Positions 7,386-37,665 of a stretch of DNA of 64,000 nucleotides are shown here, in pieces. Source of the stretch: an archaeon. GTDB lineage: Archaea; EX4484-52; WAPT01. Each line of letters opens with the position of its first letter. Within the stretch, counting starts at the first letter, position 1. The position numbers and the translations under genes were made by a program. The notes below the pieces were generated by a model. That model ran no database searches, was not told the DNA's origin, and was given only the letters and a program-made list of their open reading frames with translations. Where the stretch lies: assembly GCA_029258795.1 (NCBI GenBank), contig JAPDKB010000009.1, positions 22,564 to 86,563 on the forward strand. The letters run 5' to 3'.

Positions 7386-7502
7386 GGTGGGGGCCGGGAT
7401 TTTCGGGATGTGTGTTGATTTTGGTGAGGAATTTTACACTTTCGAACCCGGGTCAGAGGCTCCACAGGCCTCCATTCTAGACCAGGCTAAACTACCCCCA
7501 CC
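7386..7502 (-). tRNA. tRNA-His(GUG) with G-1 and a ~40 nt intron in the T-loop
   Basis: G(-1)-GTGGGGG-TA-GTTT-...-GAAT-G-GAGGC-CTGTGGA-GCCTC-TGAC-CCGGG-TTCGAA[intron ...CCCGAAAA]T-CCCGG-CCCCCAC-C. The extra 5' G pairs with discriminator C73. Confidence 0.65.
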
Positions 7503-7544
7503 ACAGAAACATAGTTTAAATTGGGAGGCATTTTTAAAAGTTTT

Positions 7545-8684
7545 TTAGGATTTTCTGATGACGAACTCGCAGAACTCATCACCCATGGCAATGCATTTCG
7601 TTTCTTCAGTGGAACATTCCTCACCGAAAAATAGATTGCCCCAACCCATCATGTAACCTCTAACGGCATCACAAACGGGCTTTGAAGTTTTCACACCCTT
7701 TTCAATATAAGTTTCAGCAAAGCCAGAATTGAAGAGACGTACTATTATTTCATTCTTATCCATGGTTATAATTTTTGCGATGCCGAAACCCCAGATTCTG
7801 GAATAATATTGATCAAGGAATTTCTGCCACATTTTTCGCTTAGTTGAAAAAGTTGTGAACTCTTTCAAAATGAAGATATATAGTTGGAGGAGTTTGGATA
7901 CTTTTTTGTACCATTCGGATGCCGATAATGAAATGATTCCTGTGATGGAATCACCCATGATTTTCTTTCCTTCCTCCCTTATTGTGAAGTAAAAGCTTGA
8001 CGGAACTATCAGCTCGGGCCAGCCCTTAAGCATATAAAATCCTTTATTGGTGTCCAGCTTCACCCCTCCGTAAGGCACCAAATTTCCTGATTGTTTTGGA
8101 TGCGGTTTCTCGTCAAAATCCCAATTGGATGGGCTATCCTCAATCTCAATTGAGAATCTGCATTTATCATCACCACGCGTAACGCATGAAATTTCCACAC
8201 ATCTGCTTTTCCGCCTAGTAGAGCGCTCAGCCAAACCCTCCAGCACACCTGCGATGTAATGACAGAATGGTGTTTTACGCTTTCCGAATTTTTTAACGAA
8301 CCCTGTGGAGAAAGGTGTCTCGCGCGCCTCTACTATTATCCTGTTCTTATTTTCCTTCTTTAAAGTATATTTTCCCAGCCCAAGCCATGTTAGGGATTCC
8401 ACACTACTTTCCAACGAGCCGTTTTCAACAGGAACTATGAGCGAGGCATCTTTACCTGCTTTGTGGAAGAGAAATCCAGCGGAGGCACCAACCAACCTTT
8501 CCATTTCTCTCTTCATGCTCTGAAAAATGTACGCATGCCTCAGCAGCACTCTGAATCCATTTACATATATCGCGCCCTTTTCCGGGTTGACTAGAATGTC
8601 CACGCTCATGGTTACCTTATCTAGGTTAAAGCCATATATAAAAATTTTCGTTTTTTGTCGAATAAAAACGGGTAGGTGGAACAA
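7545..8684 (-). CDS. Protein with two V4R-like domains (putative small-molecule-binding/regulatory)
   Basis: 379 aa. The C-terminal ~120 aa carry conserved Cys and aromatic residues in a V4R-like pattern, and the N-terminal half looks like a second divergent copy. Confidence 0.35.
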   Translation of the reverse strand: MFHLPVFIRQKTKIFIYGFNLDKVTMSVDILVNPEKGAIYVNGFRVLLRHAYIFQSMKREMERLVGASAGFLFHKAGKDASLIVPVENGSLESSVESLTWLGLGKYTLKKENKNRIIVEARETPFSTGFVKKFGKRKTPFCHYIAGVLEGLAERSTRRKSRCVEISCVTRGDDKCRFSIEIEDSPSNWDFDEKPHPKQSGNLVPYGGVKLDTNKGFYMLKGWPELIVPSSFYFTIREEGKKIMGDSITGIISLSASEWYKKVSKLLQLYIFILKEFTTFSTKRKMWQKFLDQYYSRIWGFGIAKIITMDKNEIIVRLFNSGFAETYIEKGVKTSKPVCDAVRGYMMGWGNLFFGEECSTEETKCIAMGDEFCEFVIRKS

Positions 8685-8701
8685 AACTATTTTTAGAATG
8701 A

Positions 8702-8836
8702 TGGTGCGGGGGGTGGGACTTTCAGCTGCGAAGCCTCCAGCAATTATTCAGCTTTCTCCGCAGCATTCGAACCCACGAAGGCACTGAGCCACGGGACCCT
8801 GAATCCCGCGCCTTTGGCCAGGCTCGGCAACCCCCG
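8702..8836 (-). tRNA. tRNA-Leu(CAG) with a ~47 nt intron in the T-loop; CCA encoded
   Basis: GCGGGGG-TT-GCC-G-AGCCTGGCCAAA-GGC-G-CGGGA-TTCAGGG-TCCCG-[long variable arm]-GTGGG-TTCGAA[TGCTGCGGAG...CGCAGCTGAAAG]T-CCCAC-CCCCCGC-A-CCA. Confidence 0.7.
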
Positions 8837-8862
8837 CACTTCAAGCAAAGAACATGAATTAA

Positions 8863-9393
8863 TTGCGCGCAAAAGTTAAAAATGATAGCACAAAGCTCCT
8901 TGATATGGGTGAGAGAAACGATAGAGAGCTCTTGCTAATTTCCGCCTGTCTTTTTGGTCTGGATACCAATTACAAAGGAGAGAACAAAAGGCTTGAGAAG
9001 CTAGAAGAACTGCTGAAAGATTATATTTTGATTCCTGTTTGTCCAGAGCAGCTTGGCGGGCTGGAAACTCCAAGAGTTAGCGCGGAAATAGAAACCGGTA
9101 AAATCGGAAATGATGTGCTTGAAGGTAAAGCAAGGGTGATGAGAGAAGATGGTAAGGATGTTACGGAAAACTTCGTGAGAGGGGCTCAGCAAACTTTGAC
9201 CATCTGTAAGATTCTTGGGATAAAAAAGGCATTGCTAAAAGAAAGGAGCCCATCCTGCGGTGTGAATGTAATCTATGATGGAACATTCAGCAGGAAGCTT
9301 AAGAAAGGAGAGGGTGTCACCACAGCGTTGCTCAGGCAACACAGCGTAGAGGTTTTCAGCGAGGAAGAGCTAGATAAACTCTTACGGTGTTGA
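8863..9393 (+). CDS. DUF523-like protein
   Basis: ACLFG...CPEQLGGLETPR...SPSCG pattern. The true start is probably the Met at 8905. Confidence 0.5.
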   Translation: MRAKVKNDSTKLLDMGERNDRELLLISACLFGLDTNYKGENKRLEKLEELLKDYILIPVCPEQLGGLETPRVSAEIETGKIGNDVLEGKARVMREDGKDVTENFVRGAQQTLTICKILGIKKALLKERSPSCGVNVIYDGTFSRKLKKGEGVTTALLRQHSVEVFSEEELDKLLRC

Positions 9394-10824
9394 AGCAGGA
9401 TTCGATATTTTCCTCCATCTTACACCGCGCGGCGTGTCGAAAACAAGCACACCTCTCTTTCTCAGCTCATCTCTTATCCTATCTGCTTCCTCAAACCTCC
9501 TTTCCTTTCTCAGCTTTTCCCTTTCTTCAATCATCTTCATTTCTTCCACGTCCAGCCCTTCACTCCTCTCAAAATCCTCAAAAATGCCGAGCACGCTTGC
9601 AAGCTTCAGGAACTGGTCAAGCATGTGCTCCATAGCTCTTCTACTTTTTCTTTCTTCAGAATTAACGTACTTGTTGATAAAGCTGGCGAATTCAACCAGC
9701 ACTCTTGTTGCTCTTGAGGCATCAAAATCATCATCCATAGCTTCCTCAAACTCCTTAACAAATCTGTCAACTTCCCTTATTGCATCTTCATCAACCCATC
9801 CATCATCTTCTGTTGCGTTAATTTCAGCATCGAGCATTTCCAAAGCGTTCTCAAGTTTTCTGTAAAGCTTCTCAGAGTCCTTTATTGCCTTTTCATCGAA
9901 ATCCACAGGGTCTCTGTAATGCACGCTTGCCAAGAAGAATCTCAGCACACGAGCATCATATTTCTGTAGGAGCTCCCTCATCGTCACTATGTTTCCCAAG
10001 CTCTTGCTCATTTTCTCTCCTTTTATTGTGACGAACTCGTTGTGCATCCAGTAACGCACAAAGGTCTTGCCCGTTGCTGCCTCGCTCTGAGCTATCTCAT
10101 TTTCGTGATGCGGGAAGATGAGGTCCTTTCCCCCGCCATGAATGTCCAGCGTCTCTCCTAGATACTTCATGCTCATGGCTGAACATTCTATATGCCATCC
10201 GGGCCTTCCCTTCCCCCAGGGCGAATCAAACACACTGCCAACTTTATAATCTTCATCCTTAGCGGCCTTCCACAAAGCAAAGTCCCTCACATCTCTTTTG
10301 CGCGAGTCTGGCTCTATTCTGTGGCGCTTCAGCTCTTCAAGATTCTGTTTGCTCAGCTTGCCATAGTCCTTGAAGGAAGGCACATGGAAATACACGGTGC
10401 CATCATCAAGCACGTAAGCGTGACCTCTCTCAATTATCTTTTCAATCAACTCAACGATCTCCTTTATGTGCTCCGTGACCTTCGGATAGTGATGCGCTTT
10501 CTTTATGTTCAGGGGCTCCACTATATCCTCAAAGAACGCCTTAATGAAGAATTCCGAAACTTCCTTGAAGCTTTTCCCCTCTTTCAGAGCACGATTTATT
10601 ATTTTATCATCCACATCAGTGAAGTTCTGCACAAAAACAACTTCGTATCCTCTGTATTCCAGCCATCTCCTTATAACATCGAATGCAACACAACTTCTAG
10701 CATGCCCTATGTGACTGTAGTCGTAAGGAGTTATACCACACACATACATCCTTACCTTTCCTCCCTCAAGCGGAACGAATTCTTCCTTCTTTCTCGTCAT
10801 GGTGTTATATATCTTAATGGGCAT
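9382..10824 (-). CDS. cysS: Cysteinyl-tRNA synthetase
   Basis: MPIKIYNTMTRKKEEF N-terminus, HIGH motif YDYSHIGHARS, KMSKS motif. The track ORF begins 33 codons upstream; that start is unlikely. Confidence 0.9.
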   Translation of the reverse strand: MPIKIYNTMTRKKEEFVPLEGGKVRMYVCGITPYDYSHIGHARSCVAFDVIRRWLEYRGYEVVFVQNFTDVDDKIINRALKEGKSFKEVSEFFIKAFFEDIVEPLNIKKAHHYPKVTEHIKEIVELIEKIIERGHAYVLDDGTVYFHVPSFKDYGKLSKQNLEELKRHRIEPDSRKRDVRDFALWKAAKDEDYKVGSVFDSPWGKGRPGWHIECSAMSMKYLGETLDIHGGGKDLIFPHHENEIAQSEAATGKTFVRYWMHNEFVTIKGEKMSKSLGNIVTMRELLQKYDARVLRFFLASVHYRDPVDFDEKAIKDSEKLYRKLENALEMLDAEINATEDDGWVDEDAIREVDRFVKEFEEAMDDDFDASRATRVLVEFASFINKYVNSEERKSRRAMEHMLDQFLKLASVLGIFEDFERSEGLDVEEMKMIEEREKLRKERRFEEADRIRDELRKRGVLVFDTPRGVRWRKISNPASTP

Positions 10825-10857
10825 AAAAGCTGATTTTGAAAGGAAATTATAAAAGAA

Positions 10858-11388
10858 TTGTTCTTCTCCACCTTCTCCATGGAGTTCTTCTCCCACATCT
10901 ATGAAAGCTGGCGCGAAATGCAATATGAAAAGTACGAAGCAATTTTTCGCGAGCTTGAGAGTGCTAACGCGAGTGTGCGGGGAAAAACCGTTGTGGATGT
11001 TGGATCTGCACAGGGCTTCCTAATCGATTTTATGAGGGGGCAGGGAATACAAACCAAGCTGTATGTGGGAGTGGATGTTGATAAAAGCGCGATACGAAAG
11101 CTGAATTCCCAGCTCAAAATTTTGGCGAGCGCGGAAGCATTGCCGTTTAAAGAAGAGGTGTTTGATGTGATGTTCTGTATAGATGTGATTCACCTTTTGA
11201 AGGATAAGCTTGATCTTTCTCCGGTGAAGGAGGATGGGGTGGTTGTGGTTGCTCTACCATCCAGACATGAGAGCAAGTTGCAGAGGTTTGTGGAAGATAT
11301 GAGCGCTGAAGGAATGGAAATGTTGAGCTCTTTTTCAATAGAAGGAAAAGAAAGGGAGTGTGTGGTGGTGCTGAGGAAGAAGCACTAG
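10858..11388 (+). CDS. Class I SAM-dependent methyltransferase
   Basis: Motif I VVDVGSAQGFLIDF, then a D/E acidic loop. Confidence 0.6.
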   Translation: MFFSTFSMEFFSHIYESWREMQYEKYEAIFRELESANASVRGKTVVDVGSAQGFLIDFMRGQGIQTKLYVGVDVDKSAIRKLNSQLKILASAEALPFKEEVFDVMFCIDVIHLLKDKLDLSPVKEDGVVVVALPSRHESKLQRFVEDMSAEGMEMLSSFSIEGKERECVVVLRKKH

Positions 11389-11696
11389 CATTGTTGCTGG
11401 AGTTTTGTTGCGATTTCTCTTAGCTCTGCAGGGCTGTAGCTCTCATTCCTGTCCAGAAGCCTGGAGTAAACCTCCTCCAGCCTGCTGACCACGCTGTGCT
11501 CGCCCCTGTAGAACGAGTTCCAGAGCTTACCCGCTTCCCTGTAGTTCTCCAGTGTGCGCTTCAGCTTTTCCACATCCACACCAACCCTCTCCAGAACATG
11601 TCCATCGTTTTCAAGCAGGGTTTCGATGCTGTTTAACAAGTCCGCGTACGAGAAAAAGCTATACTTCTTGGCTCTTTCCGAGGATAAATCCATCAC
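11385..11696 (-). CDS. Hypothetical protein, 103 aa
   Basis: ORF only. Confidence 0.4.
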   Translation of the reverse strand: MMDLSSERAKKYSFFSYADLLNSIETLLENDGHVLERVGVDVEKLKRTLENYREAGKLWNSFYRGEHSVVSRLEEVYSRLLDRNESYSPAELREIATKLQQQC

Positions 11697-11768
11697 CCTT
11701 CATCCCACTCACCCCCTCCAGATTTTCTCGACAGGTTGAGATGTTAGGAAAAAGAAGTTTATAAAGTT

Positions 11769-12194
11769 TTATCCACGCGCAAAAGGCAGATTCTTCATGA
11801 TGCATACGCATCTGTACAGCTGCTCCAGCAGGACTATTCTTGCAAGTTGATGTGAGAATGTTAATCTAGAGAGTGAAAGTGTGGAAGAGGCAAGCTCCTT
11901 TATACTTTCATCCACGCCGTGTTTACCACCTATGATGAATGTTATATCACTGTTCAGCTTTTCTTTCAAAAACTCGCAGAAGTCGTGAGAGTTGAACTCC
12001 TCACCCCTCTCATCCAGCAAAACAACATAACCTTTAAGGTATTTCTTTATTTTTTCCGCTTCCTCCTCCACACTCCTGCCTTCCTTGAGCTCAACGATTT
12101 CAATCTTGAGGTGGGGCTGGAGAAGCGCCAGATAATGTCCCTGAGCATCCCGAAAATGGGATTTTAACTTACCCACACAAACAATTCTGGTCAT
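11769..12194 (-). CDS. rlmH: rRNA methyltransferase RlmH-like (SPOUT, DUF163)
   Basis: 141 aa; ...FIIGGKHG...SLSRLTFSHQLARIVLLEQLYR pattern typical of RlmH. Confidence 0.7.
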   Translation of the reverse strand: MTRIVCVGKLKSHFRDAQGHYLALLQPHLKIEIVELKEGRSVEEEAEKIKKYLKGYVVLLDERGEEFNSHDFCEFLKEKLNSDITFIIGGKHGVDESIKELASSTLSLSRLTFSHQLARIVLLEQLYRCVCIMKNLPFARG

Positions 12195-12217
12195 TCAGAA
12201 ACACCACAAAAACTGTT

Positions 12218-12336
12218 TGGTGCCCCCGCCGGGATTTTCAGCCGCTTATTCTCTCTCGAAGTAGAGCATGACGGCATTTGAACCCGGGTCATCGGCTCGA
12301 GAGGCCGATATCCTTGCCTGGCTAGACTACGGGGGC
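12218..12336 (-). tRNA. tRNA-Glu(CUC) with a ~42 nt intron in the T-loop; CCA encoded
   Basis: GCCCCCG-TA-GTCT-..-GGAT-A-TCGGC-CTCTCGA-GCCGA-TGAC-CCGGG-TTCAAA[TGCCGTC...GGCTGAAAA]T-CCCGG-CGGGGGC-A-CCA. Confidence 0.65.
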
Positions 12337-12383
12337 ACAATAACTTGTATTAAAAAAGCAGGAGAATTTTAAATGTTTCGTCT

Positions 12384-12611: not shown

Positions 12612-12664
12612 GATATCTCACCTCACAGATTAAAGGTGTAAATAGGGGGATGGAAATATCCCCA

Positions 12665-13072
12665 TCATCTGTAGCTGGTCTGTTTGATTCTTCTCGGACC
12701 CTTCTTTGACCTTGATGGTTTGTGGGGCTCTGTTCTTCTCGGATCGTAAACAAGCATACCCCTGTCATATTCGAGGAACTTCTTCTTCAAGCTCTCGCTT
12801 TTGGTCAGTCTGACCAAAGCCCTCGCTATCGCCATCCTTATCGCTTCAGCTTGAGCATTAATCCCACCGCCTTTCACCACAATATCCATGTCCACCTTCT
12901 TTATCTTATCCTCTCCAGCTATTATTATGGGCTCCATGATCTTCAGCTTCAGCATTTCGGGCTTGTAAATATCAAGCAACATCTTGTTTATTCTTATGGT
13001 TCCACTCCCCTCCCTAACATACGCTCTTGCTACAGCCGTCTTTCTCTTACCTGTTGTAACAAAAGGTTTCAT
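12665..13072 (-). CDS. rps9: 30S ribosomal protein S9 (uS9)
   Basis: VTTGKRKTAVARAYVREG ... C-terminal KKGPRRIKQTSYR. Confidence 0.85.
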   Translation of the reverse strand: MKPFVTTGKRKTAVARAYVREGSGTIRINKMLLDIYKPEMLKLKIMEPIIIAGEDKIKKVDMDIVVKGGGINAQAEAIRMAIARALVRLTKSESLKKKFLEYDRGMLVYDPRRTEPHKPSRSKKGPRRIKQTSYR

Positions 13073-13076
13073 AGTA

Positions 13077-13493
13077 TCACCACCTTGCACCCAACCATCT
13101 TGCAATGTCCTCAATTCTCACGAACTTCCTATCTCTGAGCTTGTCTGCGGTCCATTCGAGCTTGATCTTCTCAGCATCCTTATACTCGTCAGGTACGCCG
13201 ATAAAGACCTTCACCCTTTTATATGCCTCTTTGCCGCGTGTTGTTTTGTATGGAAGCATCCCGCGTATTGCTCTTCTCACAATCCTATCGGGCATTCTGG
13301 GGAAAAACGGACCCTTGTATCTGTCTCCCACATCCCTTCTGGTTTTGTACTTATCTTTTATGTTCTCTTCATTCCCGCTTATTATGGCTTTTTCAGCATT
13401 AACTATAACGATTGTCTCTCCCTCCAGAGCTTTCTTCGCCACAAATGATGCCATCCTTCCCAAAATGGTGTCTGTAGCGTCTATAACCATCAT
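13077..13493 (-). CDS. rpl13: 50S ribosomal protein L13 (uL13)
   Basis: MMVIDATDTILGRMASFVAKKALEGETIVIVNAEKAIISG. Confidence 0.85.
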   Translation of the reverse strand: MMVIDATDTILGRMASFVAKKALEGETIVIVNAEKAIISGNEENIKDKYKTRRDVGDRYKGPFFPRMPDRIVRRAIRGMLPYKTTRGKEAYKRVKVFIGVPDEYKDAEKIKLEWTADKLRDRKFVRIEDIARWLGARW

Positions 13494-13500
13494 TTTTCAT

Positions 13501-13869
13501 TCACCCTTTCATCAACCTTACTCCGCTTCCATTAGGGTTCTGTTCCAACAGGTCTCTTATAGGGAGCCACTTTCCTCCCGCTTCCTCAACTTTTTTTATG
13601 GCCGAAGGTGAAGCATCAAGTGATGCAACCACAAGTTTTTTGGTGAGATTCCCACCACCAAGCAGCTTGCCTGCCACAACAACAATCTCTCCTTCATTGC
13701 AGTACCTTTCCAGCTTTCCAACGTTTACGGGCTTCTTAATCCTTCTTGGCCTCTCAAGCTCATCTGCAAGCGCTCTCCACACCGGAGCTTTATTCTTCAC
13801 GCTTGCTTTCCTCAATACCCTTATCAGCTCCCTCAACACAGGGTTGGTAGGGCCGGTCGGTTTCATCAT
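13501..13869 (-). CDS. rpl18e: 50S ribosomal protein L18e
   Basis: PTNPVLRELIRVLRKAS...APVWRALADELERPRR...VVVAGKLLG. The start was moved to Met19 to avoid overlapping tRNA-Leu. Confidence 0.8.
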   Translation of the reverse strand: MMKPTGPTNPVLRELIRVLRKASVKNKAPVWRALADELERPRRIKKPVNVGKLERYCNEGEIVVVAGKLLGGGNLTKKLVVASLDASPSAIKKVEEAGGKWLPIRDLLEQNPNGSGVRLMKG

Positions 13870-13887
13870 GCCACCTCCATAGCTGTA

Positions 13888-14007
13888 TGGTGCAGGGGGT
13901 GGGATTTCCACGCTTCCGTGCAATTATCGGAAGCGGTTCGAACCCACGACGGGCCTGCGCCCACCGGATCTTAAGTCCGGCGCCTTTGACCTCTCGGCCA
14001 CCCCTGC
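13888..14007 (-). tRNA. tRNA-Leu(UAA) with a ~33 nt intron in the T-loop; CCA encoded
   Basis: GCAGGGG-TG-GCC-G-AGAGGTCAAA-GGC-G-CCGGA-CTTAAGA-TCCGG-[long variable arm]-GTGGG-TTCGAA[CCGCTTCCG...CGGAAGCGTGGAAA]T-CCCAC-CCCCTGC-A-CCA. Confidence 0.7.
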
Positions 14008-14048
14008 ACAGCCCAGCAATCTTCACTTTTTGTGTATGATTTTTAAAT

Positions 14049-14858
14049 TCATTTAAGCTGAGCTTTAACCTTCTCCTCAAACTCGTTTATTCTTTCAATC
14101 ACACCTTGCACAGCATTCATCACTATCTGTGCAGGGGTCAGGCCGGAAACGCTTTCAACGTTGAATATGATGTGTGAAGAGTCTCCACGCACCTTTATCT
14201 TGCCTTCCGATCTCTCCTCACACAGTCCGCAGAGATCACAGAGATAAGGATCTTTCAACACAGCTTTTCCGTCCTTGATTTCCAGAGCTCCTCTCGGGCA
14301 GAGCTTTTTAGCATCCACCTTTCCATCGAGCTTTTCGCTCTCCACAACAGGGAAGTACTGATAACCAACGACAGCGCTCTGCCATCTCGCATGTCTCGTT
14401 GCCTTGTCGAGTATTGCAACGGCTTCCAGCTCAATCTCCTGTCCTTCAAGCAGCTTGACTATTATCTCATCTCCATAGACGGGAGCAACATCCGGATTGT
14501 TCGACACAAGGTCTTTAGCATAGACCACACAGGGCCCCTTTTTCTTGAGCAGGAGCTTTGCGGTACATTTCATACAACCTTCTTCCTTGTTGCAATCACA
14601 CTTCTCTCTCGGCACGTAGCGAAGCGGATCGAATTTTAGAGGGATAAGTCCTATTCTGTGTGCAAGAAGCTCGTTGTAAAGAGCGGAAGTGTTCTTGATA
14701 ATGTCCACAAACTCCACTGCCATCACATAAACCTCGCTGTACATGGCTCTCCTTATAGCGTTCGCTATTGCAGGATTTATTCCCTTAACCTCAAACCTGA
14801 TCTTCTCACCATCATCCTCAAGAATTTTAACATCAAATCCGCTCTTGGCTTTTACCAT
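14049..14858 (-). CDS. rpoD: DNA-directed RNA polymerase subunit D (Rpo3) with an Fe-S domain
   Basis: 269 aa; Cys clusters CDCNKEEGCMKC and CDLCGLCEE; sits in the conserved S11-RpoD-L18e position. Confidence 0.85.
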   Translation of the reverse strand: MVKAKSGFDVKILEDDGEKIRFEVKGINPAIANAIRRAMYSEVYVMAVEFVDIIKNTSALYNELLAHRIGLIPLKFDPLRYVPREKCDCNKEEGCMKCTAKLLLKKKGPCVVYAKDLVSNNPDVAPVYGDEIIVKLLEGQEIELEAVAILDKATRHARWQSAVVGYQYFPVVESEKLDGKVDAKKLCPRGALEIKDGKAVLKDPYLCDLCGLCEERSEGKIKVRGDSSHIIFNVESVSGLTPAQIVMNAVQGVIERINEFEEKVKAQLK

Positions 14859-14863
14859 TCACA

Positions 14864-15277
14864 TCACACTCTCCTTCCTCTTCTTCCGCCGGGCTTTCTG
14901 GTTCTGTCGTGCGGAATGGGAGTCACATCCTCAATCTTACCGATCTTCAATCCTGCCTGAATAAGGGCTCTTATTGCTGGCTGAGCTCCCGGACCGGGTA
15001 TTTTGGAGAGATGGCCTCCCGGAGCCCTGACGCGCACGTGCACAGCAGTTATTCCCTTTTCAAGCGCTTCTTCAGCAGCCCTCTTGGCAGCGAGCATGGC
15101 CTGGTATGGTGCACCCTTCAACCTGCCCTTATCGGTAACAAATCCACCCGAAACACGGGAAATCGTGTATGCTCCAGTAATGTCGGTTATGTGAACTATG
15201 GTGTTGTTAAAGCTGCTGTAGATGTGAGCTATTCCCCACCTTTCCTGCTTTTCTTTTGTTGTCTTAGCTTTAGCCAT
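14864..15277 (-). CDS. rps11: 30S ribosomal protein S11 (uS11)
   Basis: [21 protein letters not shown]...APYQAMLAA. Confidence 0.9.
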
Positions 15278-15297
15278 CCACCATCACCACTTTTTCA

Positions 15298-15849
15298 TCA
15301 GCTGCCTTCTCCACCGGCTTGTTCACCACCGCTTTTCTGCTCCGCAAAAAGACCGAAACCCTTCTCATACATCTCCTTAACAGAGGAATTCGGATGGAAA
15401 TCTATCGAGTTTTCCTTATCTATGTTCACGATGTATCCCGGAGAGACAACACGCTGTCCATCCACAACTATGTGTCCATGAACTATGAACTGCCTTGCCT
15501 GCTTTATGGTTCTGGCAAGACCCTTTCTGTAAACAAGTGTCTGCAACCTTCTTTCAAGCAGGTCCTTGACGGTTATATCCAGAATGTCGTCAAGTGTTGC
15601 ATCCTCTTTTACAAGACCCATCTCATAAGCTTTCCTTATAAGAATCTTCTCTGCTTCCTCGTCAGGATTTGCGATGAGCTGCCTTGCTCTCCTTCTGAGC
15701 TTTCTCACTAGCTCTTCGGCTCTCCTTATCTCCTTCTTCCTTCTGAGCCCGTATATCCTCATCAACTTCCTTTCTTCTCTAATCCTTTCAGCATCCCATC
15801 TTTTGCGCGGGGATTTCCACTTTCTCTTCAGCTTGCGCGGATCACCCAT
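15298..15849 (-). CDS. rps4: 30S ribosomal protein S4 (uS4)
   Basis: [19 protein letters not shown]...[13 protein letters not shown]. Confidence 0.9.
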
Positions 15850-15863
15850 ATATCAACACCACA

Positions 15864-16328
15864 TCACTTCTTCTTTCTCTGCACACCAACAGTCATACCC
15901 TTCCTGAATCCGGTTCTCGTGCGCTGCCCTCTTACAGGCAGACCCATCTGGTGTCTCACTCCTCTGTAGCACTTAATTCTCATGAGTCGTGTTATGTCTT
16001 CCTTAACCCTCAGGTCGAGGTCAACTCCAACCAGATGCTCGTCCTTTCCTGTCTCTCTATCCTTCCTCCTGTTGAGCATCCATACGGGCATGCCATACTT
16101 GAGAGGGTCTTTAAGAGCATCCTCGATCTTCTTTATTTCCTCCTCGCTAAGCTCCTTCAGTTTCTTCTTCTCATCTATACCCAGAAGCCTGACCAACGCT
16201 CTTGCGAAATTGTAGCCAACACCCTTTATTCCCTGCAGAGCCATGTAAACATACCTATTTCCATCCAGATCCGTACCAGCAATACGTACGACCTCTTCAG
16301 CTCTTATTTCCTTTGCAGCCATCTTCAC
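15864..16328 (-). CDS. rps13: 30S ribosomal protein S13 (uS13)
   Basis: IRIAGTDLDGNRYVYMALQGIKGVG...RGQRTRT. Confidence 0.9.
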   Translation of the reverse strand: MKMAAKEIRAEEVVRIAGTDLDGNRYVYMALQGIKGVGYNFARALVRLLGIDEKKKLKELSEEEIKKIEDALKDPLKYGMPVWMLNRRKDRETGKDEHLVGVDLDLRVKEDITRLMRIKCYRGVRHQMGLPVRGQRTRTGFRKGMTVGVQRKKK

Positions 16329-16561
16329 ACCTCGCGAAACCCAACGAGTTCTTCCCGCCAGAAACGACCCGGATTTATGCCCCCGCAGCTTTTTCCCGGA
16401 GGCAACCGGGCCACGAAAATAACTTCCTCAATTTTAATTCAAAAACGTGACAATTTATACTCACATAAAATTTAAAAAGGTTTTCAAATGTTCAAGCTGA
16501 AATTCCGGACAGAGGATGTTTTTCTTTATTAATGCCTTATTAATGATAAAAGTTTAAAAAT

Positions 16562-17167
16562 ATGCCAATACAAATGTGCCGCATGAAACTTGCGCCTAAA
16601 AATTTTGATGATGTTGAAATTGTCAAGGAATGCTTGATCACGAGTTATAATCTTCACCATACCATCGAGATTGAGGGGAAAGCAGTAGGGGTTGCCGATT
16701 ATTGGCCCAATATCAGAGAAAACATAGAGAGATTTTCCAAGTTTCTTTTTGAAACGGATAGGGGCGAGGGAACTATAATTTCGTGTAGCGAGTTGTATGA
16801 TGGTGTGCGTGAGATAGTTATGCTCACAGAAATCAGGGAGATAACGGGTTTGACACCAAACTCAACCATTTATTTCGGAGGAAAAGCGGAGTTCCACCCA
16901 ACGTTGGAGAAAATTTCTGCATCCTATAATCCTTACCCTCCCACCGTGCCAAGATACTCGTGGTGCGTGCTGGAATACATAATCCCTCCGGCAGATTCAA
17001 CCTTCATCCTTACATCATCGAAAAAATTGGACGAAATTTCGGAGAAAGAGTTGGAAGGGTTTGAGCGACAGCTGGAAATAAAGGATGAATTGTTGAAAAA
17101 ACTCCAGGAAACATACATAAAAAAGAAGGAGCGCGTTAACTTTGAAATCAACAAACTTTATGTATAG
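16562..17167 (+). CDS. Hypothetical protein, 201 aa
   Basis: ORF only, with a coiled-coil-like C-terminus. Confidence 0.45.
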   Translation: MPIQMCRMKLAPKNFDDVEIVKECLITSYNLHHTIEIEGKAVGVADYWPNIRENIERFSKFLFETDRGEGTIISCSELYDGVREIVMLTEIREITGLTPNSTIYFGGKAEFHPTLEKISASYNPYPPTVPRYSWCVLEYIIPPADSTFILTSSKKLDEISEKELEGFERQLEIKDELLKKLQETYIKKKERVNFEINKLYV

Positions 17168-17289
17168 ATAAAAGTTTGGCACCGCGGGCAAACCCAAGGA
17201 ACCGCCAGCAGGGCCCCTCTCCCCATACGAGGTTTGCAATTTACTCTTTAGGTTCTAGGGCTGAAGAACTTTATAAAGTTTGTTCTGAG

Positions 17290-17847
17290 TCATAAATCTC
17301 CGAATCTAAAAACTTCCAACTTCCGTTCCTTCAGATCCATTAGAAAAAACTTGAAATCATCGGATATGGTGATTTCAAAGAGGGATTTGTTTCTGCGCAT
17401 CCAATCAACAAATTTCCTATCCGTTGTAAGAAACCCATCAAGCCGGTTAGATACTGCTGTCAGCAGATGAAGAAGATCGTAGGTTTTCACGTTCTTTGTT
17501 AGCATTCCGAGAATCTTTTTATTCGCGAAAAGAAACATCACATCACTCTCAACACCAACCCTTTCAAACCTGCTGAGGAAACTGGCAAATTCCTTTCCGA
17601 ATTTTCTGAAGAAGGCTTCCGCTCTTTTCTTGGGATCTTCTATTACATCTCCGCAGAATTTCTTTATTATTTCCTTCTCCTTTTTCTTATAAAGAATCGT
17701 GAAGAAGAACTCTTCAAGCGTGAAGGGAGAGATACAGAAGGCCACATCTGCTTCCTTACCGAGCTCTTTTTCGATAATCTTCCATCCTTCTTGGGAGAAG
17801 AGAGCCATAAAGCCAGAAGTATCCAGATAAACTCTCACACCGCTCAC
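17290..17847 (-). CDS. PIN-domain protein (VapC-like putative RNase)
   Basis: VYLDTSGFMALF N-terminal Asp motif and ...LLHLLTAVSNRLDGFLTTDRKF C-terminal T-x-D motif. It overlaps the upstream ORF by 4 nt. Confidence 0.55.
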   Translation of the reverse strand: MSGVRVYLDTSGFMALFSQEGWKIIEKELGKEADVAFCISPFTLEEFFFTILYKKKEKEIIKKFCGDVIEDPKKRAEAFFRKFGKEFASFLSRFERVGVESDVMFLFANKKILGMLTKNVKTYDLLHLLTAVSNRLDGFLTTDRKFVDWMRRNKSLFEITISDDFKFFLMDLKERKLEVFRFGDL

Positions 17848-18674
17848 CGTCCTACCATGACGGGGATCCTCTCAGCATATTCCTTAAGTTCAACTACACC
17901 TCCCCTTCCGGGAGAGAACAGGTGAATGAATGTATGGAATATTCCTGTCAGCCGAGAAAGCTGCATGAGATTCATTCTCCTGTAACCACGGAAAGCAAGG
18001 TATAAAGCTATTATCGGCGCTTCGAAGATTATTATCTTTTCAGGGAACTTCTCAAATCCTTCTTCTGCCAGGGACAGATATTTCTCCTTCTTCATTTTTC
18101 TCAGTAGTTCGTAATCCATTCTTATCATTTTCGGATACTCCTCGAGAACAGAGGCGAGATAGTATGATAGCGGATATATATCATCGGTTCTTCTGATCAT
18201 TCCCTCAATTTTCTTCAGCTTTTCCTCAAAATCCCTGAACTCCCTCTCAGAAATTTCAACTGCTTTTATTGCTGTGTAATTCTTCCTCATTTTTTCCATG
18301 GTTTCCTCAGCATACTCTCTGAGCATCCCCCTATAATCGGGAGAGTTCAGAATTTCGAATATTCTGGAGAGGTGAACCTCTATCTTATTCAGAGCCATTT
18401 CAGTTTCCTTAGATCTTCTTGCAGATTTCATATACCCAAGTCTGAATATCTCTGTGGGATACTCTCCCATTTTCTCTTTTAGCAAAGGCCTGTAAGCAAG
18501 AATCGAAGCAATTGCAACTTCTTGAACTTTCATCATGAATATTGTTAGGAACAAAAGTAATATATATGTATTTGGCAAATCCAAATTCTTGCTCTCATCG
18601 AAGAAGTTTATAATGTTTGGCATTTCTCGGTGGGAGGTCGAGCTACCATCATATAACTTCTTAATACCCTTCAA
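17844..18674 (-). CDS. Hypothetical protein, 276 aa, with one N-terminal TM; translationally coupled to the PIN gene
   Basis: ORF only; one hydrophobic helix near residue 40. Confidence 0.45.
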   Translation of the reverse strand: MKGIKKLYDGSSTSHREMPNIINFFDESKNLDLPNTYILLLFLTIFMMKVQEVAIASILAYRPLLKEKMGEYPTEIFRLGYMKSARRSKETEMALNKIEVHLSRIFEILNSPDYRGMLREYAEETMEKMRKNYTAIKAVEISEREFRDFEEKLKKIEGMIRRTDDIYPLSYYLASVLEEYPKMIRMDYELLRKMKKEKYLSLAEEGFEKFPEKIIIFEAPIIALYLAFRGYRRMNLMQLSRLTGIFHTFIHLFSPGRGGVVELKEYAERIPVMVGR

Positions 18675-18949: not shown

Positions 18950-19080
18950 TGGTTGCAATTGGCGCCGCGGGCAGGATTTTCAGATGCGGGAAAATCAAAG
19001 TCCCACAACCTTCGAACCTGCGCGCCCTTACGGGCACCGGCTCTCAAGGCCGGCGCACTACCAGGCTATGCGACCGCGGC
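18950..19080 (-). tRNA. tRNA-Ser(UGA) with a ~34 nt intron in the T-loop; CCA encoded
   Basis: GCCGCGG-TC-GCAT-AGCCTGGTA-GTGC-G-CCGGC-CTTGAGA-GCCGG-[variable arm TGCCCGTAAGGGCGC]-GCAGG-TTCGAA[GGTTGTGGG...GCATCTGAAAA]T-CCTGC-CCGCGGC-G-CCA. Confidence 0.65.
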
Positions 19081-27988: not shown

Positions 27989-27999
27989 GATTCACACCT

Positions 28000-29957: not shown

Positions 29958-29965
29958 TCACCCCT

Positions 29966-30373: not shown

Positions 30374-30376
30374 CCG

Positions 30377-31091: not shown

Positions 31092-31095
31092 CGGC

Positions 31096-32503: not shown

Positions 32504-32510
32504 CCTTCCT

Positions 32511-32942: not shown

Positions 32943-32954
32943 CTCGGCTCACCT

Positions 32955-33344: not shown

Positions 33345-33351
33345 TTACCAT

Positions 33352-34065
33352 TCACCTCTTCCTTCTACCGGTTCTTCTCGCGGCTATGCTACCCACCTTT
33401 CTGCCGGGCGGTGCACGCCTGCTAACAGTTTTGGGCACACCAAAGCTCTTACCACCGAACTTGTGATCACATGCGTTCATGGCTTTAGCCCTCGTTCTCG
33501 GGTACTTCTTACCTCTCGCATGCATCGCGTGCCACTTATTGCCAGCTTTCACAAATGGCTTTTTCGGCCTCTCTCCACCTGCAACTATACCTATTGTGGC
33601 TCTGCAGTTCGGATTGAGCCCCTTGGTTTTTCTTGATGGGAATTGCACTGTGACTTTATCAACATCTCTTGAAAGGACTATGGCATAACCACCGCTTGCC
33701 CTCACGAGCTTTCCACCATCGCCAGGAACAACCTCTATGTTAAACACGGGTGTACCTTCAGGTATGTCTTTAAGGGGCAGCACATTCCCTATCTTTAGCT
33801 GTGCTCCCTCTCCAACTTCCACAACGTCTCCCGTCTTCACACCTTCACTTGCAATGAAATACCATTTCTCACTCGTGCCATCGAATTTAACGAGTGCAAG
33901 AGGAGCTGTTCTGCCTGGATCATCCACTATATCTATTATCTTACCTTTAAGGTTGCCCTTCTGAAGGGGAGGATATTTAACATCAGCAACGTAGTTGAAG
34001 CTTGGCACTAAGTAGGTTTTGGATACGCCCCTTCCACGGCGCTGAGCGATTATTCTTGTACCCAT
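33352..34065 (-). CDS. rpl2: 50S ribosomal protein L2 (uL2)
   Basis: ASEGVKTGDVVEVGEGAQLKIGNVLPLKDIPEGTPV...GGERPKKPF. Confidence 0.9.
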   Translation of the reverse strand: MGTRIIAQRRGRGVSKTYLVPSFNYVADVKYPPLQKGNLKGKIIDIVDDPGRTAPLALVKFDGTSEKWYFIASEGVKTGDVVEVGEGAQLKIGNVLPLKDIPEGTPVFNIEVVPGDGGKLVRASGGYAIVLSRDVDKVTVQFPSRKTKGLNPNCRATIGIVAGGERPKKPFVKAGNKWHAMHARGKKYPRTRAKAMNACDHKFGGKSFGVPKTVSRRAPPGRKVGSIAARRTGRRKR

Positions 34066-34080
34066 ACATCACCACCATCA

Positions 34081-34359
34081 TCAGATTATGCCTAATTTAG
34101 CAGCTATGTCTGTAGCATTGTAATCCTTGCTTACGGCTATGTATGCCTTCTTCCTGCCCTTCGCATCTATCAACGTTCTAACCTTTCTGACCTTAACCTT
34201 AAACATGTTTTCAAAAGCTTTCTTTATCTTTTCCTTGTTAGCTCTTCTATCCACTATAAATGTTATGGTGTTCTCCCTCTCTATGAGAGAGATTGCCTTT
34301 TCTGTAAGCACGGGATAAAGCAACACTTCAAATGGGTCGTTAACCTTAACTTCAGCCAT
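34081..34359 (-). CDS. rpl23: 50S ribosomal protein L23 (uL23)
   Basis: LLYPVLTEKAISLIERENTITFIVDRRANKEKIKKAFE. Confidence 0.85.
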   Translation of the reverse strand: MAEVKVNDPFEVLLYPVLTEKAISLIERENTITFIVDRRANKEKIKKAFENMFKVKVRKVRTLIDAKGRKKAYIAVSKDYNATDIAAKLGII

Positions 34360-34360
34360 T

Positions 34361-35188
34361 TCAGCTCACCGCGAAAAGCTTTTTCTCCTCCAGCTCTTTT
34401 ATGGCATTCTCACTCCAGATGCTCAACCTTCCTGCATGACCACCCGGAGCCAGCATCTCCACGTTGAGATCCTTCACAAGGCAGACATCAACACCGGGTA
34501 TGTTTCTTGCTGCCTTGAATATTCCATCATCCTTACTCACCACTATGAGGGGGCCTTTCCTCTTCTTGTATCTCCTTCCTCTCATCTTACCCTTTCCGGC
34601 CCTGTATCTTTTCTCGCGCACCCTTTCCAGCTCTTCCTCCAGACCCAGCTTTTTGAGCAGGTTTTCAAGCTCTTTTGTCTTCTTCACACTTTCAAGCTCG
34701 CTAACAACGACTATTGGTAGCTTTTCAACTTTATCCGCTCTGTGTCCTCTCTTAAGCACGAGGGTTTTCCTTGCAAGAGCGGCTATGGCAGCAAGTATAG
34801 CTTTCCTCCTCTCCTTCTTGTTTATCTTCTGCTCCCACTTCTTCTCAGCTTTTGGTGGATGAGCTTTCCTACCCTTGACAGCATGTGGCACAAACCTCAC
34901 AACTCCGGTCATGTGGCCTGAACCAACTCTTATGCGTGGCAGCCTCGCTATACCTCTGTTTATCCAGGCCCCGTAAGCGCCTCTTCTTCCTCTGTAATCA
35001 GCACTAGTTCTCTTTCCTGCCAGAGGATCAGCTCCATAGGGCTGCCTCCTGTGGCTCATGATGGCAAGGAAAGCTCTGATTATGAGATCATGCCTTACCT
35101 CCTCGCTGAAGTGCTCGGGGAGAGTGATCTCGCCCTTCTTGCTTCCGTCCAGACCATAAACAGGAACTTTCAACTCAGCCATAGCCAT
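34361..35188 (-). CDS. rpl4: 50S ribosomal protein L4 (uL4, L1e family)
   Basis: 275 aa in the conserved L3-L4-L23 position. Confidence 0.85.
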   Translation of the reverse strand: MAMAELKVPVYGLDGSKKGEITLPEHFSEEVRHDLIIRAFLAIMSHRRQPYGADPLAGKRTSADYRGRRGAYGAWINRGIARLPRIRVGSGHMTGVVRFVPHAVKGRKAHPPKAEKKWEQKINKKERRKAILAAIAALARKTLVLKRGHRADKVEKLPIVVVSELESVKKTKELENLLKKLGLEEELERVREKRYRAGKGKMRGRRYKKRKGPLIVVSKDDGIFKAARNIPGVDVCLVKDLNVEMLAPGGHAGRLSIWSENAIKELEEKKLFAVS

Positions 35189-35189
35189 T

Positions 35190-36203
35190 TCACCATATCA
35201 GCTGCTTGATCTCGGGAGGTTCTGTTGGGGGCTCATGAGACCTTATAGCATATCTTATCCTCACCAATCTCTTTGATGGCCCAGGAACAGAACCATGGAT
35301 AATTATATAATCTGATTTCACAACACCATAGTGTTTCCAGCCACCGGGTCTTGCAACACGGGAAGCGTCATTTCCAACCTCCATAATCCACTTGTTGTAC
35401 TCGGTCCTTGTGTGATACCCCATCTGACCCATCTGAGGAACGGTCCACATAGTTCTTGCAGGGTGCCATGGACCGAGAGTTCCAGCTTTTCTCCTTACCT
35501 TCCTTGCCTTGTGGTGCAGAAGCTTCACACCAAATCTCTTTACGGAGCCCTGGAATCCCTTACCCTTGGTAACGGCCGTGACATCAACAAAAACACCGGG
35601 AGAAAAGACATCGGAAATGCGAAGTTCCTTGCCGAGAAGGGAGGAAACCTCATCGAGAACAGCAGAAAGGGAATCAGAAGCAGAATCGGAAGAAGCGTCG
35701 TTTACCCAGTTTGTGGGGAAATAGTGAATCTCAAAGATCTCAGGTGTCTTCTTTCCTATTCCTGCAAGCTTCGGCTGCGTTGCAACAATCAGCTTAACCT
35801 TATCAAAACCATTTTTGACCTTATCAAGCACAGCATTTTTATCCTTGTTCGGCTTTATTCCGGTTATTTTTCGTGCAACCTCCTTGTCTATCTTCTCACT
35901 CCACAGTTCTGTTATTGCTTCGTATCCATATGGTGTCTTTTTATAGAAGCGAGCAGCAAGAACCTTGAGAGGTGGTGTTTCTATCAGGGTTGCGGGCTCC
36001 ACAATTTCCTTGTTCTTGAACATACCCTCCCTTTTTTCTATGTAATCAACCTGAAGCATCCCTACTTTGTATCCGGCAAATTCCACCACATTCTTGCCAT
36101 CAACAGCAGGAACATGCCTGACTCTAGCATAAATGCGCTTAGCCCTAACTCTGGGGGAAAACTGCAATGATCCTCTCCTCGGGTGGTAATAGCTCATTTC
36201 CAC
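35190..36203 (-). CDS. rpl3: 50S ribosomal protein L3 (uL3)
   Basis: 337 aa; FAGYKVGMLQV...; first gene of the operon. Confidence 0.9.
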   Translation of the reverse strand: MEMSYYHPRRGSLQFSPRVRAKRIYARVRHVPAVDGKNVVEFAGYKVGMLQVDYIEKREGMFKNKEIVEPATLIETPPLKVLAARFYKKTPYGYEAITELWSEKIDKEVARKITGIKPNKDKNAVLDKVKNGFDKVKLIVATQPKLAGIGKKTPEIFEIHYFPTNWVNDASSDSASDSLSAVLDEVSSLLGKELRISDVFSPGVFVDVTAVTKGKGFQGSVKRFGVKLLHHKARKVRRKAGTLGPWHPARTMWTVPQMGQMGYHTRTEYNKWIMEVGNDASRVARPGGWKHYGVVKSDYIIIHGSVPGPSKRLVRIRYAIRSHEPPTEPPEIKQLIW

Positions 36204-36440
36204 ACACCACGCAGCATATTCATGGCTCGTAGCTTGTGTTCACAAGATTTGTAATCATGAAAATGATAACATTTAAATATTTTGGTGATATCTGGCTGGA
36301 GGCAACAACCTATACATACCCTCATACAAAAAAAGCGACAGCTTTTAATCAAACACCAAAATTTTTAAACGTTGTTATTCTCGCCTTCACGACTTTAAAG
36401 AAAAAATATTTTTAAAGTAGCGTCGGCAATAAAATACCCA

Positions 36441-37040
36441 ATGACTGAAAAACTCAGCGAAAAGGTGAAGAAATTCCTTGTAGTGAAAAAGAAAGTAAAA
36501 CTGGAGGAAATATCCAGCTATAAAACTCAGATTCTCATAATAGGGTCAACGATTTCCTTCCTTCTCGGAGGTTTTGACCTCTTACTTCCTTTTCTTCTTG
36601 CATGGTTTTCATACTTTATATTTGAGAGTTACGCATGGGAATTTGGTTTGGATAATCTTGGGGTGGAGCTCATAACACTGGCATGTGTGCTCGTGGGGAT
36701 GAAATTCGAACCAGCATTTTCCTTCATTTACGCGTATGTTACAATAGGCACAATGTCATCCATAGCAAAGTTTGTTGATCCCGACTCCGATGAGATATCA
36801 AATCCATTCGGAAGCTATGCTTTTGGGTATGGTGTTGCTGCGCTTTCAGCATCTTATCTAGCAGGCAACCTACCTTTCCCAGAACTTCTGGTTGCTTCTG
36901 CCATACTTGCCAATCTCGCGAGATTTGCTTTTGACCTCTTGGTTTACAGAAGTATTGATGATATTATATGGAGGGTGGGTAATATTTTCTTTAACTGCAT
37001 TATTGCAATGTTCTTTTCATTTCTCAGCATGGTTATCTAG
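36441..37040 (+). CDS. Hypothetical integral membrane protein, 199 aa
   Basis: 5-6 hydrophobic helices. Confidence 0.5.
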   Translation: MTEKLSEKVKKFLVVKKKVKLEEISSYKTQILIIGSTISFLLGGFDLLLPFLLAWFSYFIFESYAWEFGLDNLGVELITLACVLVGMKFEPAFSFIYAYVTIGTMSSIAKFVDPDSDEISNPFGSYAFGYGVAALSASYLAGNLPFPELLVASAILANLARFAFDLLVYRSIDDIIWRVGNIFFNCIIAMFFSFLSMVI

Positions 37041-37517
37041 GGTTTTTCGCAATCTTGTGTAGATGGGCGTGTATTTTCGTTTCTCGTAAAATCTGATCGA
37101 GTTGTGATTTCCAACGTAAGCGTCAAGCTCAACAATTTTGATGTCCATCTCATGCGCTTTCTTCTCGGCTGCTGAAAGCAATGCACTCCCCACCCCTTTG
37201 GAACGCCACTCTTCAACCACATAGATATTATCTACATACAACACCTTTTCCCGCCTATAGATTCCAGCATAAGTTATGACTCTCCCGCTCACCACACCGA
37301 TAATCTTCCCATCCTCACTCTCAGCCACGAGCAACAATTTCGTACCCTTTTTCATACCTCTAATACAAGAGTTAACGTAGTTCTTCAGGCTACCCTCACA
37401 ATCATCTCCACTTTTGAGAAGGGGATCGTAATACCTCTCCTCTTCCTGCATCAGCTTGAAAAGTCGCAGTATATGGTCCGAGTCATCATCTTCGGCTTCC
37501 CTTATTTCCGCATGCAT
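37017..37517 (-). CDS. GNAT family N-acetyltransferase
   Basis: RSKGVGSALLSAAEKKAHEMDIKIVELDAYVGNHNSIRFYEKRKY motif A/B. Confidence 0.65.
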   Translation of the reverse strand: MHAEIREAEDDDSDHILRLFKLMQEEERYYDPLLKSGDDCEGSLKNYVNSCIRGMKKGTKLLLVAESEDGKIIGVVSGRVITYAGIYRREKVLYVDNIYVVEEWRSKGVGSALLSAAEKKAHEMDIKIVELDAYVGNHNSIRFYEKRKYTPIYTRLRKTLDNHAEK

Positions 37518-37547
37518 GAAGGGATCACACCATCAAACAAAAATCTA

Positions 37548-37665
37548 TGGGCCGGCCAGGATTTTCAGCTGCGGAGTTCCAGCATATTCAGCTTTGCTCC
37601 GCAGCAATCGAACCTGGGACCTCTCCCGCGTCAGGGGAGCGTCATAACCCCTAGACCACCGGCCC
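37548..37665 (-). tRNA. tRNA-Val(GAC) with a ~44 nt intron in the T-loop; CCA not encoded
   Basis: GGGCCGG-TG-GTCT-AGGGGTTA-TGAC-G-CTCCC-CTGACGC-GGGAG-AGGTC-CCAGG-TTCGAT[TGCTGCGGAGC...CCGCAGCTGAAAA]T-CCTGG-CCGGCCC-A. Confidence 0.7.

Follow-up and report, generated by a model that had tools for sequence, protein, structure and literature searches.

We analyzed the tRNA genes in a 64,000-nt stretch of an archaeal contig (NCBI GenBank assembly GCA_029258795.1, contig JAPDKB010000009.1, positions 22,564 to 86,563 of the forward strand; hereafter the window, meaning this whole stretch). Eight tRNA genes are present, all on the minus strand, and six of the eight carry an insert of 32 to 47 nt between T-loop positions 59 and 60, while the tRNA-Arg(UCU) gene has an insert in its D-loop. 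We consider it very probable that these inserts are bulge-helix-bulge (BHB) tRNA introns spliced by protein enzymes, six of them at 59/60 and one in the D-loop, and comparison with relatives suggests that introns of this kind are undergoing gain, copying and loss. Judged from its protein sequences, the host is a relative of Candidatus (Ca.) Marinivulcanus frater in the DPANN phylum Terrarchaeota/EX4484-52.

Recovery of the interrupted tRNA genes

The tRNA genes of the window and their introns are as follows:

722-847, minus strand: tRNA-Arg(UCU); D-loop intron 778-825, 48 nt, between positions 20a and 21
5302-5375, minus strand: tRNA-Ala(UGC) in the 16S-23S spacer; contiguous, without intron
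7386-7502, minus strand: tRNA-His(GUG), including G-1; intron 7400-7440, 41 nt, at 59/60
8702-8837, minus strand: tRNA-Leu(CAG); intron 8719-8765, 47 nt, at 59/60
12218-12336, minus strand: tRNA-Glu(CUC); intron 12235-12276, 42 nt, at 59/60
13888-14007, minus strand: tRNA-Leu(UAA); intron 13905-13936, 32 nt, at 59/60
18960-19080, minus strand: tRNA-Ser(UGA); intron 18977-19010, 34 nt, at 59/60
37548-37665, minus strand: tRNA-Val(GAC); intron 37562-37606, 45 nt, at 59/60

At the interrupted T-loop loci, the 5′ part of the tRNA runs as far as GGTTCRA and is followed by the insert, a T, the 3′ strand of the T-stem and the acceptor strand. The introns were searched for by a scan that listed 4-bp helices flanked by two 3-nt bulges and adjoined by at least one 2-bp helix, removed the intron implied by each, and then asked ARAGORN for a tRNA spanning the junction. 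When both flanking helices were required, the scan recovered the Leu-CAG, Glu, Leu-UAA and Val genes, and in its relaxed form it added His and Ser together with several alternative solutions for Arg, so that all six T-loop introns were recovered by this procedure alone. Removal of the insert gave a full ARAGORN cloverleaf with the expected anticodon for each of the seven interrupted genes. In five composition-matched, block-shuffled windows the scan returned one false tRNA in total, compared with seven in the real sequence.

Standard tools performed poorly on the unspliced DNA. ARAGORN reported three genes, two of them wrongly bounded, and thus delimited one of the eight tRNAs correctly; the Rfam tRNA model passed its threshold on only two of the eight, namely, Ala and a fragment of Arg.

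An initial annotation of this DNA had proposed 59/60 introns in six of eight tRNAs, a D-loop insert of about 47 nt in tRNA-Arg(UCU), an intron-less state for tRNA-Ala only, and no intron at the canonical 37/38 position. The scan and the spliced cloverleafs bore out the first of these, the Arg insert proved to be 48 nt, and tRNA-Ala is contiguous; no canonical intron was found among the window tRNAs, and a second pass that allowed a canonical plus a T-loop intron yielded no extra tRNAs. The coordinates given there were exact or nearly so, except that tRNA-Leu(CAG) begins one base earlier, at 8837, and tRNA-Ser(UGA) ends at 18960 rather than 18950. Permuted or split tRNAs, which that annotation had named as a finding that would overturn its gene boundaries, were searched for within the window along with two-intron tRNAs, and none was found.

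Architecture of the T-loop junctions

The T-loop junction is a 3-4-3 bulge-helix-bulge in which the T-stem forms the outer helix, TTCR pairs with YGRR to form the central helix, and a hairpin within the intron supplies the inner helix. Read from 5′ to 3′, its elements are the 5′ strand of the T-stem (5 bp), TTCR, two loop bases, the cut, one base and the hairpin; then follow YGRR, two bases, the second cut, position 60 (always T) and the 3′ strand of the T-stem. The central helix of 4 bp thus joins T-loop positions 54 to 57 to the YGRR that precedes the last two intron bases. The 5′ bulge comprises nucleotides 58 and 59 plus the first intron base, and the 3′ bulge comprises the last two intron bases plus nucleotide 60.

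Strict hBHBh′ junctions were found in four of the six T-loop cases: Leu-CAG, with an inner helix of 9 bp; Glu, with the central helix TTCA:TGAA; Leu-UAA, with TTCG:TGGA; and Val. The Ser junction is also a 3-4-3 BHB and is near-strict, having a single U-U mismatch at pair 2 of the inner helix. The His junction is relaxed (hBH), since its 5′ site lies inside an internal loop, and its T-stem, TTCG:CGAA helix and AA/T 3′ bulge (the slash marking the cut) are intact. A BHB-like structure could therefore be drawn at all the junctions proposed in the initial annotation, that of Arg (see below) being relaxed as well.

To quantify pairing, we laid out 15 T-loop introns from six genomes (6 from the window and 9 from relatives) as a core alignment in fixed register. 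Pairing is complete for the outer 5-bp T-stem and the central TTCR:YGRR helix (135 of 135 cells), whose 3-nt 3′ bulge is likewise intact in all 15 introns, and it reaches 72% of cells for the inner helix. Overall pairing amounts to 90%, versus 73% in shuffled sequences (0 of 500 shuffles reached 90%) and at most 57% when the partners were slid out of register. Position 57 covaries with its intron partner, the pair being A:U in 5, G:C in 5 and G:U in 5 of the 15 introns. Between genomes, the inner helix of the Leu-CAG intron shows one compensatory change, from C:G to U:A. Several Leu-UAA and Glu junctions of the relatives are relaxed, with a 2-nt 5′ bulge or a 1-nt offset.

The initial annotation had also pointed to a G/CGAAA(A) element at the intron ends. 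Four of the six introns indeed end in CTGAAAA/G and the other two in CGAAAA and TGGAAA, but this is not an independent motif: the shared ending, YGAAA(A), arises because the strand that pairs with the invariant T-loop is followed by the two bulge bases. The CUGA of these introns was also considered as part of a C/D-box small RNA, and this was rejected, since no box C is present and the central helix, together with the closing pair of the inner helix, accounts for CUGA.

In the canonical arrangement, a 5-bp stem closes a loop of 7 nt, and the 37/38 site separates loop positions 6 and 7. The 59/60 site is its exact counterpart, a statement that derives from the established canonical geometry and not from a tool result: in both, a 5-bp stem is the outer helix, loop positions 1 to 4 form the central helix and the cut falls between positions 6 and 7. 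Taken together, the junction structure and the restored cloverleafs make it very probable that the inserts are archaeal BHB (EndA-type) tRNA introns. A relaxed-specificity splicing endonuclease, which the initial annotation had read from the noncanonical position, is not implied by that position, because most of the junctions are strict hBHBh′; no more than two or three junctions call for relaxed recognition, and such an enzyme is plausible for His, Arg and some junctions of the relatives.

The D-loop intron of tRNA-Arg(UCU)

The tRNA-Arg(UCU) gene lies directly after the stop codon of a Sec61beta-like open reading frame (ORF), and an intron-less orthologue that likewise adjoins Sec61beta was found in a more distant relative (locus L021). 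This orthologue fixes the mature D-loop as AGCCTGGACA. Because it reads GGACA followed directly by GAGC at the junction, the intron is taken as 48 nt, and the boundary returned by the scan itself (a 46-nt intron leaving a 12-nt D-loop) was rejected. One A makes the boundary ambiguous, 777-824 being as valid as 778-825. The spliced window gene matches the L021 gene at 70 of 76 positions, and the two D-loops differ in length by a further 2 nt. The junction, a relaxed BHB, has CTGG:CCGG as its central helix and, beside the D-stem, a clean 3′ bulge of AAA; its outer helix is interrupted by A14-C16, three D-loop bases on the 5′ strand between the D-stem and the central helix, and the 5′ cut site lies in or beside an extension of the helix, which can reach over the site.

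The host and its relatives

Relatives were found by an alignment-based scan for RpoD, whereas a scan with a single RpoD sequence found none. The window RpoD has a 100% match on an NCBI contig of 104,676 bp and relatives at 80% and at 56% identity, and the nearest named proteins, at about 48%, are from Aenigmatarchaeota. Two of the 80% relatives came from the GTDB representative genomes, and one of these, GCA_015520605.1, is the type of Ca. Marinivulcanus frater, which belongs to the family Marinivulcanaceae from hydrothermal deposits and to the phylum EX4484-52 (= Terrarchaeota) in DPANN cluster 2 (PMC13195033). The closest relatives of the host are 80 to 86% identical and include this species, which agrees with the mention of DPANN lineages in the initial annotation. 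Comparison loci (L003, L005, L007, L016, L018, L021 and L022) were drawn from six relative genomes; of these, L021 belongs to the more distant relative mentioned above (CysRS 67%) and contains four contiguous tRNAs, the Arg-UCU gene among them. An independent Logan assembly (L001), apparently of the same organism, contains the window Leu-UAA gene with its intron as well as the beginning of the Glu gene.

Filled and empty sites

The state of each site in the window and in the relatives' loci is given below:

Leu-UAA (between rpoD and L18e): 59/60 intron in five of five genomes (window, L003, L005, L007 and L018); relatives' genes at L003 10833-10973, L007 10815-10955, L005 3964-4093 and L018 5659-5780
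Glu: 59/60 intron of 42 nt in the window, 48 nt in L003, 102 nt in L005 and 24 nt in L018 (Glu-UUC); L007 contiguous
Ser-UGA: window filled; L003 and L007 contiguous
Val-GAC: window filled; L016 and L022 contiguous
Leu-CAG: 50-nt 59/60 intron in L016 and L022, of the same family as that of the window
His: 39-nt 59/60 intron in L005, at the same site as in the window

In total, 59/60 introns were present in 16 of the 25 tRNA genes seen across the intron-rich clade, and this position accounts for six of the seven window introns and for all 11 noncanonical introns in the relatives' loci. For His, Leu-CAG, Glu and Leu-UAA, the position is kept in orthologues while the intron sequences diverge. The Leu-UAA gene of four relatives contains a canonical 37/38 intron of 13 to 22 nt besides the 59/60 intron, whereas the window copy is without it, which looks like a precise loss.

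Splicing the window genes in silico reproduced the empty sites almost exactly. The spliced Val gene is identical to the intron-less orthologues at 73 of 73 (L022) and 72 of 73 (L016) positions, the spliced Ser gene matches those of L003 and L007 at 85 of 87, and the spliced Glu gene matches the contiguous orthologue at 72 of 74; the spliced Glu gene of L003 equals the contiguous Glu gene of L007. Because they form natural pairs of empty and filled sites, these genes fix the intron boundaries to within the 1- to 4-nt repeat that the bulges create.

In L003, a 5.4-kb integrated element (12650-18133) abuts the tRNA-Glu gene. It encodes a tyrosine integrase, a PIN protein, a methyltransferase fragment and a 706-aa protein, and it is flanked by a 28-nt direct repeat consisting of the 3′ end of tRNA-Glu (acceptor 3′ strand) and trailer sequence. 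This element was considered as a source of the Glu intron and rejected, because the attachment repeat lies downstream of the intron.

Similar introns in nonorthologous tRNA genes

The Val and Leu-CAG introns of the window are identical at 41 of 48 positions (85%; z = 10.4 against shuffles), while between the Leu-CAG introns of the window and L016, which are orthologous, the identity is 36 of 55 (65%). Within the window, a pattern describing the Val/Leu-CAG family matches at these two places only, the chance expectation being 0. The Glu intron of L003 also falls into this family (34/48 to Val), and the Glu intron of the window lies outside it (∼27/47). In L005, the T-loop introns of Leu-UAA (4055-4079) and His (11743-11781) share their 5′ part (GGAGCT...; z ∼5), a hint of a second family of introns in a single genome.

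Thus, similar introns occupy nonorthologous tRNAs, they are present or absent among relatives, and paralogous introns are closer to each other than orthologous ones, the features by which transposed introns are recognized. Since the Val and Leu-CAG introns are closer than the orthologous Leu-CAG introns and the Val site is empty in two relatives, the simplest reading of these sequences is that tRNA-Val, on the branch leading to the window, received a copy of a Leu-CAG-type intron at the same T-loop site. At the Glu site, other genomes would have undergone turnover or loss, and the overall pattern suggests that 59/60 introns are still being gained, copied and lost in this family of Terrarchaeota/EX4484-52.

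Alternatively, the T-loop introns could all be ancient and have been deleted precisely in some genomes, e.g., by recombination with cDNA of a spliced tRNA, with no mobility at all. Certain sites do speak for deletion: the Glu intron, shared by the window and three relatives but missing from L007, is most simply explained by loss there, and the canonical intron of Leu-UAA, kept by four relatives, appears to have been lost from the window gene. An ancient origin followed by losses alone is nevertheless disfavored and, in our judgment, rather unlikely, because it does not predict the pattern of similarity described above, neither the closeness of Val to Leu-CAG with two empty Val sites nor an L003 Glu intron that stands nearer the Leu-CAG family than the window Glu intron does.

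It is very improbable that the insertions merely inactivated these genes and that functional, intron-less copies are located elsewhere. Second copies are possible in the part of the genome beyond the window, but DPANN genomes are small, and their tRNA genes are typically single copy. Furthermore, the exons are intact and almost identical to functional-looking orthologues, synteny is conserved (e.g., Leu-UAA lies between rpoD and L18e in five genomes), and every insert has kept its BHB, with substitutions that preserve pairing. That the inserts are T-loop expansions retained in the RNA, or an assembly artifact, is scarcely credible: nothing specific favors it, beyond the fact that the 16S rRNA of the same organism does have an unexplained 47-nt insertion without a BHB, while an insert of 32 to 47 nt would abolish the T-loop/D-loop elbow of the tRNA, the intron-bearing Leu-UAA gene recurs in L001, 59/60 T-loop introns occur in five other metagenome-assembled genomes (MAGs), and the BHB geometry would be left unexplained.

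Several points weigh against our reading of the inserts as mobile, protein-spliced introns. Excision from the transcript is a prediction from the sequence, and neither EndA nor RtcB was found among the 40 larger window ORFs scanned against Pfam, a scan that did not extend to the ribosomal-protein genes and short ORFs. The core alignment favors the proposed structure, whose register it follows, and the slide control is the fairer comparison. The junctions of His, Arg and several relatives depart from 3-4-3, and cleavage there would depend on the specificity of the enzyme. As for mobility, the direction of gain and loss rests on few genomes without a formal phylogeny, gene conversion between existing introns could be another source of the likeness between the Val and Leu-CAG introns, and a pattern search of JGI metagenomes returned no further copies of the family, its one match being a chance match in a coding region.

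Other features of the window

The remaining gene content is archaeal as well and includes an rRNA operon, RNase P RNA, a large ribosomal-protein cluster and rpoD. Features outside the tRNA genes are as follows:

1034-1356, minus strand: archaeal RNase P RNA
2204-5143, minus strand: 23S rRNA of the rRNA operon
5462-7044, minus strand: 16S rRNA of the rRNA operon
Between the tRNA-His and tRNA-Leu-CAG genes: V4R protein gene

Exact-protein look-ups with the V4R protein returned no match. About 150 nt toward the 3′ end of the RNase P RNA match are shared with the Sec61beta-like ORF (851-1180/1198, minus strand), and one of the two boundaries is probably wrong.

The 16S rRNA gene exceeds the archaeal model in length by about 105 nt. 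It contains a 47-nt insertion at 6347-6393 (minus strand), in the apical loop of helix 23 (the "690 loop"), and a further insertion of 16 nt close to its 5′ end. We rejected the 47-nt insertion as a BHB intron, since no excising BHB could be drawn; either an expansion that stays in the rRNA or an intron of an unusual type may be present.

A ThiF-family protein and a TtuA-like 2-thiouridine synthetase are encoded by adjacent genes at 52116-54323. TtuA is involved in the thiolation of T54 in the T-loop of thermophile tRNAs, and in the six window pre-tRNAs with T-loop introns, T54 is predicted to be paired with the intron before splicing. The presence of a TtuA-like gene, together with an rRNA G+C content of 60% versus ∼44% in the remaining window, fits a thermophilic host.

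A cluster at 40046-44313 encodes a MATCAP-like carboxypeptidase, a DUF72 protein, a RimK-type ATP-grasp ligase, a 319-aa protein (RimK_N in the relatives) and a retropepsin-like aspartyl protease. It is syntenic in L016 and L022, and such a pairing of a peptide-tail ligase with peptidases is unusual for a DPANN genome. At 47865-48544, genes for a minimal nucleotidyltransferase and a HEPN protein are adjacent in a toxin-antitoxin-like arrangement, and a similar pair is present in L005 (9016-9689).

Discussion

Given that their geometry is the same as that of the canonical 37/38 intron, the splicing endonuclease EndA would be expected to cut the T-loop junctions of the pre-tRNA two bases into each bulge. 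TTCRAN would then be rejoined to Y by an RtcB-type ligase to yield a normal T-loop; the enzymes acting here and on canonical introns are presumably the same. A canonical intron pairs with anticodon-loop bases, which differ between tRNAs. In contrast, the 59/60 intron pairs with TTCR, which is near-invariant, and this would make it transplantable. Since the exon bases required for pairing would be the near-universal TTCR only, the intron should function in any tRNA unadapted, and any tRNA would be a competent recipient. We infer that this portability underlies both the bias toward a single position and the occurrence of near-identical introns in tRNAs as unrelated as Val and Leu-CAG.

A bolder proposal is that these are short introns specialized on the universal T-loop as a docking site, which propagate between Terrarchaeota tRNA genes by a route not yet characterized. 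Reversal of the EndA and ligase reactions followed by fixation in DNA, or conversion driven by microhomology within the T-arm, would be examples of such a route. We regard this proposal as distinctly unlikely as it stands; if it were true, no better system than this lineage, with its natural empty and filled sites, would be at hand for observing tRNA intron gain in archaea as it occurs. Under the same proposal, the introns might be retained for a function, such as gating T-loop modification (s2T54 and m1A58) or disrupting sites at which integrating elements attach.

There are precedents for this type of element, for the 59/60 position, which is known although uncommon, and for the transposition of introns. 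Both 59/60 and 20/21 are listed noncanonical intron positions (PMC4090602). In ARMAN-2 (Ca. Micrarchaeum), pre-tRNA-Cys(GCA) contains a 13-nt hBH intron at 59/60 that is cut in vitro by the epsilon2 EndA of this archaeon, and tRNA-Pro(GGG) has strict BHB introns at 53/54 and 59/60 (PMC3239211). The position and a DPANN host are thus shared with the introns described here, and of the two ARMAN-2 59/60 introns, one is hBH like that of His and the other strict like those of Leu, Glu and Val. ARMAN-2 differs in that its introns are shorter and spread over many positions, while one position dominates here, and its phylum is not Terrarchaeota/EX4484-52.

The Thermoproteales resemble the present lineage in the high fraction of disrupted tRNAs, in near-identical introns in nonorthologous tRNAs and in BHB-dependent portability, and similar introns in different tRNAs have been taken there as transposition (Sugahara 2008 and Fujishima 2010, to the extent that they are cited in PMC4090602 and PMC4033280). 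Their introns lie at many positions, however (3/4, 20/21, 25/26, 29/30, 45/46, 53/54, 56/57, 59/60 and others), whereas those described here are essentially confined to 59/60, and their EndA is an (alpha-beta)2 enzyme with a Crenarchaea-specific loop, while the host here belongs to a DPANN lineage. For the Arg-UCU intron, the nearest likeness is the relaxed HBh′ D-loop intron of Methanopyrus kandleri pre-tRNA-Glu(UUC), which is found in another tRNA and another lineage, shares its tRNA with a canonical intron and is a poor substrate for an EndA without the specific loop (PMC5829648).

Efficient cleavage of relaxed motifs is reported only for the (alpha-beta)2 and epsilon2 types of EndA, and among DPANN archaea, the disruption of tRNA genes is greater where an alpha4 enzyme bears an extra loop (PMC5829648). 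Because such loop-bearing alpha4 enzymes go along with more disruption, the subunit type of EndA alone does not settle its specificity.

What is new here is the host phylum, the near-exclusive use of 59/60 and the clean set of filled and empty sites. Archaeal tRNA intron gain has been called unresolved, with "snapshots" of insertion events being wanted (PMC4033280). This lineage offers matched filled and empty sites at single-nucleotide resolution in the Val, Ser, Glu and Arg genes, and with intron copies that are closer within a genome than between orthologues, at one position and with a common pairing partner, portability becomes directly testable. The finding also concerns genome quality. 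Since standard finders miss most of the intron-bearing tRNA genes, tRNA counts used as a measure of MAG quality in EX4484-52/Terrarchaeota are probably underestimates, including the "tRNAs: 15/20" given for the type MAG of the sister species Ca. Marinivulcanus frater (PMC13195033). The tRNA genes of this lineage thus provide a model for intron gain and, at the same time, a caution for tRNA counts in MAGs.

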